A DNA stretch of 50,378 bases from a virus. Lineage: Duplodnaviria; Heunggongvirae; Uroviricota; Caudoviricetes. Positions within the stretch are counted from its first letter, which is position 1; each line of letters opens with the position of its first letter. The position numbers were made by a program, and so were the translations under genes. Below the pieces are notes generated by a model. That model was given only the letters and a program-made list of their open reading frames with translations, had not been told where the DNA came from and searched no databases. Of this stretch, positions 43,742-50,378 are shown in pieces. The DNA lies in the IMG/VR virus record IMGVR_UViG_2562617057_000009, positions 1 to 50,378 of that record. The stretch is one strand, 5' to 3'.

Positions 43742-44058
43742 GGGAATTTTCCCCGCACACGCCGGAGAACTGGATCACCACGCACAACGGCATTGAGTAC
43801 ACGGCACCAGCACCAGGGGAGAACATCCGCGACAACGCTCCAAACTTTCATAAATGGCTTGATCACGCTGCCGGAAAAGATCCGGGCAAGATGATGCGTA
43901 TATGCGCCGCGCTATACATGATTATGGCGAACCGGTACGACTGGCAGATGTTTATTGAGGCCACCGGAGACGGCGGGAGCGGCAAGAGCACTTTCACGCA
44001 CATAGCCAGCCTTCTGGCAGGGAAACAGAACACAGTAAGGCAGTATGACTTTCCGTGA
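43742..44058 (+). pseudogene. internal fragment of a P4-type primase/helicase gene (Walker A GDGGSGKS)
   Basis: Frame reads ...YDWQMFIEATGDGGSGKSTFTHIASLLAGKQN...; no start codon; begins at the IS186 end. Confidence 0.6.
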
Positions 44059-44059
44059 G

Positions 44060-45565
44060 ACAGATGCTGGCCAACGTGGGATATTTAACGCGGGTTAACA
44101 TCGTTGTCAGAGCCGCATGGGTGAGCTGTTGCTACACCCCGGTATTTCCACCACGGAGGCCAGCATGAACAACAATAACACATTGTACGTCGGGTTAGAT
44201 GTTCACAAAGAATCGATTACTGTCGCTTATGCTATCAATTCAGAACCTGTTGAACTGATGGGTAAAATTGGCACATCACCTACTGATATTCAGAATCTTT
44301 GTAAACGTCTCAGGTCAAAGTCATCGCAGGTCAGTATCGTTTATGAAGCGGGGCCCTGTGGTTATGGACTTTATCGTCGGCTGGTGAAATCCGGTTTTGA
44401 CTGCATGGTCTGCGCCCCCTCACTTATCCCGAAAAAACCGGGGGAGCGGGTTAAAACCGATCGCCGTGATGCCATCAGACTTGTGCGTTCACTGCGTGCA
44501 GGAGATCTTTCTGCTGTCTACGTACCCGGCATTGAAGATGAGGCATTCCGGGATTTGGCCCGGGCATGGGCATCTGCCCGCGATGATTTACGGCATGCAA
44601 GGCAACGTCTGAAATCGTTTCTTCTGGTTCATGGGGTCCATTATGTCGGGCGAGCAGATTGGGGCCCTGCACACCGACGCTGGCTCAGCAAATACTCATT
44701 CGAAAGTCCCTGGCGACAATTAGCTTTTGACGAACACCGTCGTACAATAGAAGACCGGCAGGCACAATGTGAACGGCTGGAATCCGCCCTGAAGGAGGCC
44801 GTTACCGAATGGAGGCTGTATCCGGTAGTAGAGGCGCTGCAAGCCATGCGAGGGATTCAGTTTATTACTGCGGTTGGATTAATTTCTGAACTGGGTGATC
44901 TGACCCGTTTTGAACATCCACGACAACTGATGTCATGGTTTGGTATCACGCCATCAGAATATTCATCGGGTGGAAGCAGACATCAGGGCAGCATTACCAA
45001 AGCCGGAAACAGCTATGCCAGAAAGCTATTGGTCGAGGCAGCGTGGAGTTACCGTCATCCGGCACGCATCAGTCCGGCAATACAAAAAAGGCAGGAAAAT
45101 TTACCCCGCCCCGTCATTGACAGAGCATGGGATGCTCAACTCAGGCTTTGTAAGAGGTATCGAAAACTTCAGGCCAAAGGAAAGAATGTCAATATTACAA
45201 TTGTTGCTGTTGCACGTGAGCTGGCGGGTTTTATCTGGGATATGGGCCGAATAGCAATGTCTGTCGCACAACAACCACAATGTCACAAATAAAAAATGAG
45301 AATAACCAGTTCCCTGAAGGCGACGTAGCCCGGTACAAGAGTAACCCACGTTAGCGCTTGGCGACGGCGGAACAAAGCTGATTCGCGACGTAAGAAAGTG
45401 GCAGGCTCATATGACGGACCTCTGTAATGCGGTATCCAACCCGCGAATATCAGCGTGATTCACCGTCGGATTTACTGCTACGTCGCCCTCAGGGAATTAA
45501 ACCTAAAAAGAAAATCGTCAAAATTAGAGATTCCGGTTTGACACGGAAAGTCATATCAGCGCTGA
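44060..45565 (+). mobile_element. IS110-family insertion sequence (boundaries approximate) inserted in the primase gene
   Basis: Transposase with DEDD-type N-terminus (LYVGLDVHKESITVA); primase coding sequence resumes at 45567. Confidence 0.55.
44165..45292 (+). CDS. IS110-family transposase
   Basis: Start MNNNNTLYVGLDVHK; ~375 aa. Confidence 0.7.
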   Translation: MNNNNTLYVGLDVHKESITVAYAINSEPVELMGKIGTSPTDIQNLCKRLRSKSSQVSIVYEAGPCGYGLYRRLVKSGFDCMVCAPSLIPKKPGERVKTDRRDAIRLVRSLRAGDLSAVYVPGIEDEAFRDLARAWASARDDLRHARQRLKSFLLVHGVHYVGRADWGPAHRRWLSKYSFESPWRQLAFDEHRRTIEDRQAQCERLESALKEAVTEWRLYPVVEALQAMRGIQFITAVGLISELGDLTRFEHPRQLMSWFGITPSEYSSGGSRHQGSITKAGNSYARKLLVEAAWSYRHPARISPAIQKRQENLPRPVIDRAWDAQLRLCKRYRKLQAKGKNVNITIVAVARELAGFIWDMGRIAMSVAQQPQCHK

Positions 45566-45566
45566 G

Positions 45567-46292
45567 ATGACATCGCTTGATGATGCTGGTGGGCGTGCAC
45601 AGGTTGTCGGGAGTCGTCTTATCGTCCTGGCAGACCAGCCGAAATATACAGGCGAAGGAACGGGCATCAAGAAAATCACGGGCGGCGACCCCGTGGAAAT
45701 TAACCCGAAATATGAAAAGCGTTTTACGGCGGTAATCAGGGCGGTGGTGCTGGCAACCAATAACAATCCGATGATATTCACCGAACGGGCCGGAGGCGTG
45801 GCACGTCGTCGCGTGATTTTCCGTTTCGACAATATCGTCAACGAGGCCGAAAAAGACAGGGAACTACCGGAAAAGATTGCGGCTGAAATCCCCGTCATTA
45901 TCCGCCGATTACTGGCGAACTTTGCAGACCCTGAAAAGGCGCGGGCTTTACTACTGGAACAGCGTGACGGTGATGAAGCACTGGCGATAAAGCAGCAAAC
46001 GGATCCGGTTATTGAGTTTTGCCAGTTCCTGAATTTTCTGGAGGAAGCACGTGGCCTGATGATGGGTGGCGGTGGCGATTCCGTGAAGTACACGACCAGA
46101 AACAGCCTTTACCGCGTCTATCTGGCGTTTATGGCATACGCAGGCAGAACCAAACCACTAAACGTAAATGACTTTGGCAAGGCCATGAAGCCAGCCGCAA
46201 AAGTTTACGGACATGAATATATTACGCGAAAAATTAATGGAGTGACGCAGACTAACGCAATAACAACCGACGATTGCGACGCGTTTTTATAA
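45567..46292 (+). pseudogene. 3' part of the P4-type primase/helicase gene
   Basis: Continues the primase C-terminal region (LIVLADQPKYTGEGTGIKKITGGDPVEINPK...). Confidence 0.65.
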
Positions 46293-46299
46293 TTTTTGG

Positions 46300-46545
46300 C
46301 AATTGCTGTCTACCTTGTCTACCTGATTACATAAAAGTTGTTTTAATTCAGTGTATTAATTTAGGTAGACAGCTTTTTTTTACTGTCTACAAGCTGTCTA
46401 CCTTGTCTACCTGTTTTTGTAGCCAGTCGGAGGGATGGGTAGACATCAGGTAGACAGAGATTTTTTACTGTCTACCACCATAAAACCCGCGTCATTACTG
46501 GCCTGAGCATCCACCAGGTAGATAAGGTAGACAAGGTGGGGGTAT
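46300..46545. repeat. iteron array: at least 11 copies of GGTAGACA / TGTCTACC in both orientations (putative satellite ori)
   Basis: Directly downstream of the primase gene; includes palindromes around T-runs. Confidence 0.6.
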
Positions 46546-46582
46546 CTCCAAAACTTTTTAAACGAGGGGGGTAAAAACAAAA

Positions 46583-46840
46583 ATGCACACATCAGGAAAA
46601 CTTAACAATCAGAAGAAGCAACATAACCGCGCCATTGACCTTACAGAGCACTGGCTGAGGGTGGCGATAAAAATCATCGACCGCAACGCGGGAGAAGGAT
46701 ACGCGAAAGCACATCCTGAACTGATAAGCGCATTCATGACCACGGCGGCAGCAAACTTTGCCACGCTGACAGAACGGGAGATTGCCGAAGCGGAACAGGT
46801 GACAACCATCAACGTTAAAACCGGAGAGCAGACAGCATGA
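46583..46840 (+). CDS. hypothetical protein
   Basis: 85-aa ORF upstream of and overlapping the SSB start. Confidence 0.45.
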   Translation: MHTSGKLNNQKKQHNRAIDLTEHWLRVAIKIIDRNAGEGYAKAHPELISAFMTTAAANFATLTEREIAEAEQVTTINVKTGEQTA

Positions 46841-49282: not shown

Positions 49283-49294
49283 GCAGGGGGAACG

Positions 49295-49708
49295 ATGGCA
49301 ACGAATGAAAGCATCATGGCGCTACCGCTGGCGAGTAAATTTAAAGCCGAAGCGCGGGCAATGGCTGACAGAGGGTTATCAACCTACGAGGCCATATATC
49401 AACTTAACAAACTGGAAGAGCAGGACAAGCCGCGCGCTGATGCGATTATGGCGCTTGATGAATCTGGCGACTATCAGCCGCTGTTACGTGCAATGGCAAA
49501 CGTGCCTTGTATCGATGTTGGTACGGCTAAAAGCATTCTTAGCATGACCATAGAGCAGGAACGCCAGAAGGTTGCACCAGAGCTTACCGCAGCCTTTGAA
49601 AACTTTATGGACATACACAGCCCGAAAGCCGTATCAGCTGGCATGGCATACGATGGCAGAAACCCGGGCGATGACGGCGACATCGATCGCATACTGAAAA
49701 CCATCTGA
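49295..49708 (+). CDS. hypothetical protein
   Basis: 137-aa ORF followed by a terminator. Confidence 0.45.
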   Translation: MATNESIMALPLASKFKAEARAMADRGLSTYEAIYQLNKLEEQDKPRADAIMALDESGDYQPLLRAMANVPCIDVGTAKSILSMTIEQERQKVAPELTAAFENFMDIHSPKAVSAGMAYDGRNPGDDGDIDRILKTI

Positions 49709-49713
49709 GACAG

Positions 49714-49737
49714 GCCGGAGAAATCCGGCTTTTTTTA
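49714..49737 (+). terminator. intrinsic terminator
   Basis: Hairpin gccggagaaatccggc plus TTTTTTT. Confidence 0.7.
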
Positions 49738-49765
49738 CGGGTCCTTTCCGGCATATGGACCCGTT

Positions 49766-50060
49766 ACGGGGCGGGAGCGGCGCAGAATTTCACTATTTAT
49801 GAAAATTTTTCGGAAACCATGTCCGGTTTTTCTGGGAGTTAACTATTTGAAAAATATAAAAATTCACTTTCCGTGAACCGGACATGCGCAAAAATTGAAC
49901 ACTCAAACCGGACATATATGCCGCGTTTCATAAAGTTGTTCGCAAGATGCATGTTTAAAACGCATGAGGGGAGATTTTTTGGCGAGGTGAACAGTGGCTA
50001 CTCAGACTGAAGTTGCCAGGCATTTGAGTCTGACCGATCGCCAGCTTCGCAGATTACAGA
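49766..50060. other. cos region B: near-identical copy of 22833-23127 (cosN, ACCGGACAT repeats, first 23 Nu1 codons) with a ~55-bp divergent internal block
   Basis: Direct comparison of the two stretches. Confidence 0.6.
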
Positions 50061-50062
50061 AA
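49994..50062 (+). pseudogene. 5' fragment (23 codons) of a Nu1-type terminase small subunit gene
   Basis: MATQTEVARHLSLTDRQLRRLQKL identical to the Nu1 start at 23059, then diverges. Confidence 0.55.
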
Positions 50063-50093
50063 TTGTTCCCCCATCACTATGGAGACCATAACC

Positions 50094-50378
50094 ATGACCG
50101 ACGCCGAACTACTGAAAGTAATCCGCCGTATTACCGGAATCAGTCAGGCAACAGGCAAACAGGTGGCCACGCAGCCGGACAGCGTGACAGCCGAAAACTA
50201 TGCGCGTGTTGTTGCTGAGGTTATGCGCCGTGACGGTATTGAGCTTAACGGCGTGGATATGCGCAACATACGAACCAGAGTCCTTGAGTTGCTGGCATAC
50301 CGTCGCCGTTCTCAACAACGGAGGGAGAGCATGAAAAATACTTACCAGTGGAAGAAGCCGGAACGGTTGCGGCGGTAG
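50094..50378 (+). CDS. hypothetical small basic protein next to cos B
   Basis: 94-aa ORF after GGAGA; stop is at the window edge. Confidence 0.4.
   Translation: MTDAELLKVIRRITGISQATGKQVATQPDSVTAENYARVVAEVMRRDGIELNGVDMRNIRTRVLELLAYRRRSQQRRESMKNTYQWKKPERLRR

Follow-up and report, generated by a model that had tools for sequence, protein, structure and literature searches.

A decayed relic of an EcCICFT073-type phage satellite with two helper-type cos sites that may serve different helpers

What kind of element brings together a P4-type primase gene, lambda-type capsid genes and two lambda-like cos sites? The question arises at the right end (positions 43742-50378) of the 50,378-nt viral record IMGVR_UViG_2562617057_000009 (Caudoviricetes), whose whole length is referred to below as the window. 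The original prediction, made from the sequence of the window, had proposed here a degraded island that could be either a cos-packaged phage satellite, PICI-like or P4-like, or a scrambled fragment of a second lambdoid prophage. We conclude that 43742-50378 very probably belongs to a phage-inducible chromosomal island (PICI) of the EcCICFT073 type and that, as the right-hand part of this satellite of lambdoid cos phages, it holds the modules for replication, morphogenesis and packaging. The window holds the right-hand two thirds of this island, as a decayed relic of an already known PICI type, of which near-identical copies are already public, unrecognised as such. The only less obvious result concerns the cos positions, which may be helper-matched and exchangeable; the rest is routine.

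Among Gram-negative PICIs, EcCICFT073 is the prototype that has been studied by experiment, and both lambda and phi80 induce and mobilise it (Fillol-Salom et al. 2018, PMC6092414; 2019, PMC6739421). The region was compared by megablast with 5,426 complete E. coli genomes. Three copies were observed at 99.8-99.9% identity, in VL7S7, O121 201805972 and FDAARGOS_943, and thousands of relatives at ~90%. In the three close copies, the DNA is a discrete island flanked by tRNA-Pro (proL) and yejO, in which the integrase gene (int), a small open reading frame (ORF), an AlpA-family regulator, Icd-like genes, DUF4222 and the primase are followed by exactly the genes of the window. The integrase carries Arm-DNA-bind_3 and Phage_integrase domains; the AlpA protein (68 aa in the copy at locus L003, PF05930 at 7.9e-8) is encoded downstream of int, with the genes unidirectional. 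Both lie outside the window, int being absent from it because the break at IS186 removed it. The VL7S7 island measures 12,812 bp, or ~11.3 kb once the 1.5-kb insertion sequence (IS) ISSso6 is subtracted.

Alignment with the empty site of K-12 set the integration site in the close copies at the 3' end of tRNA-Pro (proL), the core of the attachment site (att), CTCTCGTGCC(GA)CCAA, being the tRNA-Pro 3' end itself. The right site attR (L003 27523-27534) lacks 4 nt relative to attL (L003 14707-14722), CTCTCGTGCCAA versus CTCTCGTGCCGACCAA, a loss that fits the damaged tRNA fragments reported at PICI attR sites (PMC10111431). A previous att candidate, the 16-26-bp repeat TTTTTAGCTACACGTT, was dropped, the empty site that it predicts being present in no genome. 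From the window end to attR the near-identical copies (L001, L003 and L007) run for 983 bp, in which no phage gene is annotated, and yejO follows. No gene for the large terminase (TerL), portal, protease, tail or lysis was found in any copy, either in the annotation of these three loci or by Pfam and PHROG scans of the window ORFs. The same order, from the primase to the last ORF, recurs as an island of ~11 kb at different loci: at proL, next to phoQ, and between cspD and clpS. An integrase with att sites, AlpA, the primase-replicase gene pri-rep with an iteron origin, a size of ~10-15 kb and helper-like cos sites, by which a PICI of the EcCICFT073 type is recognised, were all found. The collinearity with EcCICFT073 and the discrete island with int, alpA and att thus bear out the proposal of a cos-packaged satellite.

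Within the window, the ORF map together with family and motif scans recovered each of the predicted elements at its position and beyond chance (Table 1). These include the iteron array, the single-stranded DNA-binding protein (SSB), two terminators, the palindrome, the E-like and D-like genes and 23 codons of Nu1. The primase gene is indeed split by an IS110-family element, ISSso6, inserted after codon 340. Its first fragment has 94.3% nucleotide identity to the primases of EcCICFT073 and Combat2C1, and both fragments match the intact 584-aa primase-helicase of FDAARGOS_943, composed of D5_N, DUF5906 and Pox_D5 domains. This intact protein scores 106.8 bits (9e-31) against the 'P4 family' model TIGR01613, just below the 108.7-bit cutoff, and hence the label 'P4-type' is roughly right for the helicase part. 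Directly 3' of pri-rep lie all nine exact copies of GGTAGACA in the 50-kb window, where 0.78 were expected and none of 100 shuffles reached nine; the position of this array matches that of the PICI origin (PMC6092414).

We then considered the packaging sites. The window contains three occurrences, and no more, of the motif GGGTCCT...ACGGGGCGG (22805, 47300 and 49739), and the 18-nt cosN core ACGGGGCGGGAGCGGCGC is identical at 22831, 47326 and 49766, that is in the cos of the neighbouring prophage and in the two island sites, cos C and cos B. Outside this core, the three sites are mosaics. The left (cosQ) flank of cos C is identical to that of the prophage at 25 of 30 positions, whereas the right flank agrees at 72 of 276, a random level. 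cos C matches the cos region of phage mEp460 (94% over 156 nt) and the cos of a prophage of strain 200177 with a small terminase (TerS) of the DUF1441 family (95% over ~150 nt). In both, the match lies directly upstream of the DUF1441/Gifsy-2-type TerS gene, which is followed by TerL, portal and a protease-capsid fusion. Note that the phages with a cos C-type cos (L010 7216-13501; L011 1-6310, which is mEp460) build their heads from a ClpP-protease/major-capsid fusion and not from a lambda E-type coat. From cosN through Nu1 codon 23, cos B is identical to the right flank of the resident prophage at 264 of 276 positions, while its cosQ side is island backbone and resembles in style the cos that precedes rppA or terS in relatives. 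Three AACCGGACAT repeats in cos B (49819 on the minus strand, 49876 and 49906 on the plus strand) keep the orientation and spacing of the prophage, and every one of the six exact copies that the window contains falls within cos B or the prophage cos.

The predicted sharing of core and flanks with the prophage cos therefore holds for cosN at both sites; beyond it, cos C shares the cosQ side and cos B the right flank, not the cosQ side. The related idea, that the island uses the packaging specificity of the co-resident phage, stands insofar as cos B carries the cosB of this prophage; cos C has that of another phage group, and the prophage is no helper now.

The comparison with relatives shows how variable this module is. 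rppA-homologous DNA is absent from the island. At the rppA/TerS position, relatives have either rppA (CFT073) or a 180-aa Nu1 homologue (Combat2C1; 35% identity to lambda Nu1, PF07471), and the island of 2012C-4221, which lacks both rpp and terS, has a bare phage-type cosB. CFT073 (L006 8339-8292) and Combat2C1 (L002 17418-17370) also possess an extra inverted cos on the minus strand, placed before the last ORF and after rppA or terS, respectively; this site is deleted in the lineage of the window. The cosB of this inverted site in EcCICFT073 resembles the Nu1-type site of the prophage (82.7% over 179 nt). The cos C allele of Combat2C1-type islands is 91% identical to the cos position of Shiga toxin (Stx)-converting phages, between Rz and TerS. 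One PICI backbone is thus seen with four packaging states, namely rppA with a PICI-specific cosB, an own Nu1-type terS, a bare helper-type cos, and a second cos cassette with alleles that follow different groups of phages. These data suggest, as far as comparison of the sequences can tell, that the packaging module of the backbone is modular and helper-matched, and that each cos site of the island serves a different helper packaging system. A bolder and tentative proposal, which we hold to be possible but somewhat doubtful, is that the two cos positions are exchangeable helper-matched cassettes, each with a complete cosQ-cosN-cosB copied from a different lambdoid packaging system. Two helper lineages unrelated to each other could then package the same island, which would need neither Rpp nor a TerS of its own. 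That PICIs can share cos sequence with their helpers has been described (PMC10111431), and the reason why EcCICFT073 has two cos sites is left open in the literature (PMC6739421). If functional, the arrangement would offer a testable explanation for multiple PICI cos sites and for the evolution of helper range.

The 94-aa last ORF lies where EcCICFT073 has a 282-bp ORF, downstream of rppA, and has 77-79% nucleotide identity to the EcCICFT073 and Combat2C1 copies; its 986 homologues are close enterobacterial relatives, none of them with a function or a Pfam domain. We tried it (50079/50094-50378) as a candidate Rpp and rejected it, with no match to a PDB chain (best, ribosomal L7/L12, E 0.94) and no Pfam or NCBIfam family. 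The RppA of CFT073 is encoded at a different position from this ORF and has no similarity to the TerS of the relatives. An AlphaFold2 model of the 94-aa protein, made from no alignment, has three helices at low confidence (mean predicted local distance difference test score, pLDDT, of 67).

The E-like, D-like and Nu3-like genes are the conserved capsid block of this PICI family. The E-like protein is near-identical to PDB 3BQW, a 'putative capsid protein of prophage' (phmmer 3.8e-219), and matches the lambda gpE structure 7VI9 at 1e-82. Both the E-like and the D-like genes are intact in the window and sit at the positions of c1499 (capsid; PMC6092414) and c1500 of EcCICFT073; the small ORF that precedes them (47641-47880) is syntenic with a 207-bp ORF of that island. 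The 137-aa protein that follows is probably a scaffold-like fragment, judging from short similarities: it matches the C-terminal end of phrog_53 (lambda-type protease/scaffold) at 2e-8 and aligns weakly with lambda Nu3 residues 126-199. It has no Pfam, NCBIfam or PDB match. A search of a representative library of 1.8 billion proteins returned 10 matches, and the link to Nu3 passes through a single bridging protein, P0161 (195 aa, in which the Nu3 C-terminal motif occurs three times), at 8e-6 to the 137-aa query and 2e-16 to Nu3. RefSeq calls this product 'phage head-tail connector protein' (WP_197939843.1-type records), whereas its sole detectable similarity is to the Nu3/gpC motif. The island thus encodes a coat, a cement and a scaffold-like piece, and has no portal, protease or terminase ATPase; the suggestion that it may encode its own capsid components stands insofar as capsid-gene homologues are present. 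EcCICFT073 still interfered with lambda when its capsid gene or its decoration gene was deleted (PMC6092414), and capsid genes, common in Gram-negative PICIs, are not needed for transfer (PMC10111431). The order noted in the original prediction, with capsid genes upstream of cos, is correct, but it means nothing where the element is circular or concatemeric, and it is the normal order in EcCICFT073.

The perfect 15-nt palindrome that precedes the capsid block (47615-47646) is conserved in EcCICFT073 (self-inverted match 5404-5435) and could be an operator or an attenuator. Over 47615-47650 it folds into a hairpin of -17.7 kcal/mol followed by UUUUU, and it overlaps the -10 element of the best promoter-like site. 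A promoter at this place is a suggestion: the counts of promoter and terminator consensus in 46200-50378 are not above those of shuffles.

By analogy with EcCICFT073, the intact ancestor would be induced by a lambdoid helper through AlpA, excised by its own integrase, and replicated from the GGTAGACA iteron origin by the pri-rep helicase-primase and SSB. Its concatemers would then be cut and packaged by the helper terminase at the island cos sites, into virions built by the helper. With no Rpp, no working TerS and two complete helper-type cos sites, an unmodified helper TerS would recognise whichever site matches it, cos C being suited to phages with a DUF1441-family TerS (mEp460-like) and cos B to phages with a Nu1-family TerS.

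Other readings of the region have to be weighed against an EcCICFT073-type PICI. Lambdoid ancestry is evident for the capsid, decoration and Nu3-like genes and for both cos sites, and the region is IS-rich and rearranged, as in a scrambled fragment of a second lambdoid prophage lying beside an unrelated primase remnant. We regard this alternative, raised in the original prediction, as scarcely credible, because the same order recurs as a discrete ~11-kb island with integrase, AlpA and att at several loci, and because genes for TerL, portal, tail, lysis and immunity are absent from every copy. Extension to the right, which was to decide the matter, meets neither gpA nor portal nor tail genes: the near-identical copies stop at attR and yejO, 983 bp past the window, and Nu1 ends at codon 23. 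In favour of a P4-like satellite exploiting a P2-type helper are the Arm-DNA-bind_3 domain of the integrase, the AlpA and Icd-like genes and the TIGR01613 match of the primase (9e-31), some RefSeq copies of which are even named 'P4 family'. However, this match stays under the cutoff, scans and annotation of the ORFs brought up no homologue of psu, sid, delta/ogr or epsilon, the capsid genes belong to the lambda E and D types, and the cos sites are lambda-type (cosQ GGGTCCT, cosN GGGCGG...), matching lambdoid phages. A P4-like satellite is accordingly very improbable, and of the two labels 'PICI-like or P4-like' only the former applies, in the absence of psu, sid and delta and with a lambda-like cos. 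The encoded major capsid, decoration and scaffold-like proteins, and the TerS of the relatives, could also point to a capsid-forming PICI (cf-PICI), which makes its own capsids and steals only tails. We give this little credence as well: the cf-PICI set of portal, maturation protease, head-tail connectors, HNH and TerL (bioRxiv 10.1101/2022.09.08.507074) is absent from the window and from the intact relatives, and the capsids in which the prototype EcCICFT073 is packaged are phage-sized (PMC6739421).

Several points nevertheless weigh against the account given here of an EcCICFT073-type PICI served by two kinds of helpers. In the literature searched, neither this island nor any of its intact relatives has been studied by experiment, and induction, helper identity and cos use are deduced from sequence. 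With a helper of the mEp460 type, whose protease-capsid fusion is unrelated to lambda E, the E-like capsid block would have no relevance. cos B may be the scar of a recombination event and not a selected packaging site. Moreover, the left half of the island is outside the window, its displacement by inversion, in preference to a deletion or a complex rearrangement, is deduced from orientation only, and no exact match to the IS186-primase junction turned up in the 5,426 complete E. coli genomes or in the species-representative genomes.

How the island came to be cut was read from the flanks of IS186. On the left, GGTAGATGCC is the target duplication in yehL, which flanks this IS on either side in an enterotoxigenic E. 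coli genome (L004); on the right, the flank is primase sequence (GGGAATTTTCCCC; GGGGAATTTTCCCC), and no matching target duplication links the two sides. This IS186 copy is therefore a recombinant of two IS186 copies, joining primase codon 242 to yehL. The right flank GGGGAATTTTCCCC fits the preference of IS186 for targets with G-runs and C-runs. In the reference arrangement of CP119441, ~100 kb of DNA separate the island from the yeh genes and the prophage, which run in the opposite direction compared with the window. Most simply, IS186 entered pri-rep and a ~100-kb inversion with the IS186 copy of yehL followed, a history that we infer from orientation. Such an inversion would split both yehL and the island, moving int, alpA and the 5' part of pri ~100 kb away. 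A simple deletion at IS186 was considered and is less likely, as the yeh/prophage block and the island are oppositely oriented in the reference arrangement.

The second element, whose name ISSso6 is taken from the RefSeq annotation of the near-identical copies, is inserted after primase codon 340 in VL7S7 and O121, and is absent from FDAARGOS_943. The 23-codon terS stub, annotated as a 72-bp pseudogene in the near-identical copies, is common to all three close relatives and is therefore older than the IS insertions. With its primase cut by IS186 and split by ISSso6 and its TerS reduced to 23 codons, the copy in the window is a dead, non-mobile relic.

The neighbouring prophage (~16000-31500) is itself a lambdoid remnant. 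An IS1 deletion runs from within gpA, the large terminase gene, to the tail-tip gene J, and the head and tail genes are gone; the prophage therefore cannot act as a helper now. The 24-kb distance between prophage and island is probably a consequence of the IS186 inversion, and their adjacency, which could be mistaken for that of a helper-satellite pair, is probably an artefact of it.

The prophage remnant carries ipaH, encoding an effector of the type III secretion system (T3SS). Just past its end, Rfam reports the Shigella small RNA (sRNA) CssrB (chromosome-encoded Shigella sRNA B; 30624-30803, 230 bits). CssrB, ipaH and the IS load point to the chromosome of a Shigella or an enteroinvasive E. 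coli (EIEC). An Rfam match to IS009 at 31560-31763 also lies just past the prophage end. In the early region of the prophage (10360-11860), Rfam identifies three tandem units of isrK sRNA and C4 antisense RNA with a period of ~656 bp. Downstream of the Q antiterminator gene, four tRNA genes at 17002-17312 have the anticodon CAT (Met by ARAGORN, Ile by RefSeq), Arg-TCT, Thr-TGT and Gly-TCC.

Table 1. Features of the island, of the insertion sequences that interrupt it and of the neighbouring prophage, in window coordinates
Feature	Position	Strand	Evidence or remark
IS186/IS421	42403-43741	-	transposase ORF 42574-43692; both terminal inverted repeats located
pri-rep, fragment 1	43742-44039	+	codons 242-340, stop-free; Walker A GDGGSGKST
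ISSso6 (IS110 family)	~44040-45557	+	transposase ORF 44117-45292; PF02371 Transposase_20, PF01548 DEDD_Tnp_IS110; break in primase alignment
pri-rep, fragment 2	45558-46292	+	codons 341-584; phrog_864 DNA primase 1.7e-71; Pox_D5, DUF5906
Iteron array, replication origin	46307-46533		GGTAGACA copies in both orientations
85-aa conserved ORF	46583-46840	+	phrog_1231; syntenic with 258-bp ORF of EcCICFT073
SSB	46837-47259	+	PF00436 7.4e-15; phrog_44
Intrinsic terminator after ssb	47267-47299	+	hairpin -16.0 kcal/mol, z -5.0, then U-run
cos C	47300-47451	+	cosQ GGGTCCT 47300-47306; cosN core 47326-47343; mEp460-type right flank (cosB)
Putative control region of capsid operon	47556-47646	+	promoter-like TTGCGA-16-TATAAT 47590-47617; inverted repeat 47556-47608
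Small ORF, first of capsid block	47641-47880	+	79 aa; RefSeq start ~47674 gives 68 aa; phrog_3255 2.7e-43
Lambda gpE-like major capsid protein	47880-48935	+	PF03864 9e-50; 43% identity to lambda gpE
Lambda gpD-like head decoration protein	48947-49282	+	PF02924 2.9e-17; PDB head decoration proteins 1TD0, 1C5E
137-aa protein	49295-49708	+	one copy of the C-terminal motif of lambda scaffold Nu3/gpC
Intrinsic terminator after capsid block	49706-49737	+	-15.4 kcal/mol, z -3.8, then U-run
cos B	49739-49993	+	island-type cosQ side; cosN core 49766-49783; Nu1-phage-type cosB
Small terminase vestige	49994-50065	+	first 23 codons of Nu1-type TerS; read against prophage TerS 23059-23568
94-aa last ORF	50094-50378	+	ends exactly at window end; phrog_1561
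Prophage cos	22805-22851		
Prophage TerS	23059-23568		Nu1-family, PF07471
Prophage gpA, truncated	23483-24922		
IS1 in prophage	~24940-25700		
ipaH (T3SS effector)	28853-30496	-	carried by prophage remnant

The use of the identification is mostly one of annotation, RefSeq labelling the parts of the island piecemeal. Its closest characterised relative is EcCICFT073, which we located in CFT073 next to phoQ and which is collinear with it, with 77-94% nucleotide identity over the shared blocks. The common order comprises primase, 258-bp ORF, ssb, 207-bp ORF, capsid, decoration, a 414-bp ORF and the last ORF, and the two are also alike in the origin 3' of pri-rep, in more than one lambda-like cos, in a size of ~11 kb and, for the intact relatives of the window's island, in int and alpA. 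They differ in the packaging module. EcCICFT073 has a PICI-specific cosB with rppA, where the window's island, without rppA, has a helper-type cosB and the 23-codon Nu1 stub; perC is absent here, and a full mEp460-type cos (cos C) takes its position. The cosN reads GGGCGGGAGCGG in the window's island and is the lambda-type GGGCGGCGACCT in EcCICFT073, whose second cos is inverted, while both sites of the window's island are direct. The window-type island sits at proL, not next to phoQ, and the copy in the window has been inactivated by two IS elements. For EcCICFT073, cos packaging into phage-sized capsids and two functional cos sites have been described, and its RppA binds the helper TerS and redirects it to cos1 of the island (PMC6092414, PMC6739421). 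Helper-dependent induction, high-frequency transfer and helper interference have been shown only for EcCICFT073 (PMC6092414, PMC6739421).

The islands of Combat2C1, IHE3034 and PMV-1, between cspD and clpS, are at 91.7% nucleotide identity from pri-rep to the post-capsid cos and likewise have a cos at the cos C position, with alleles of Stx-converting phages where the window's island has that of mEp460; unlike the latter, they encode a full 180-aa Nu1-family TerS and possess the extra inverted cos. In its inferred strategy, a copy of the helper cos without a satellite TerS or Rpp, the window's island would resemble SaPIbov5, of the cos-type Staphylococcus aureus pathogenicity islands (SaPIs), and P4, a likeness of mechanism only, since hosts, helpers and gene content differ; satellites carrying the cos of their helper have been recognised as a class (introduction of bioRxiv 10.1101/2022.09.08.507074). 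Finally, the helper-embedded Gram-negative PICI 11capE (PMC10111431), likened here from its description, is similar in size and organisation and has a lambda E-family capsid gene, and at the cos position ~258 bp are common to it and its helper at 90% (PMC10111431); it sits inside the capsid gene of that helper, whereas the window-type island is found at a tRNA gene.

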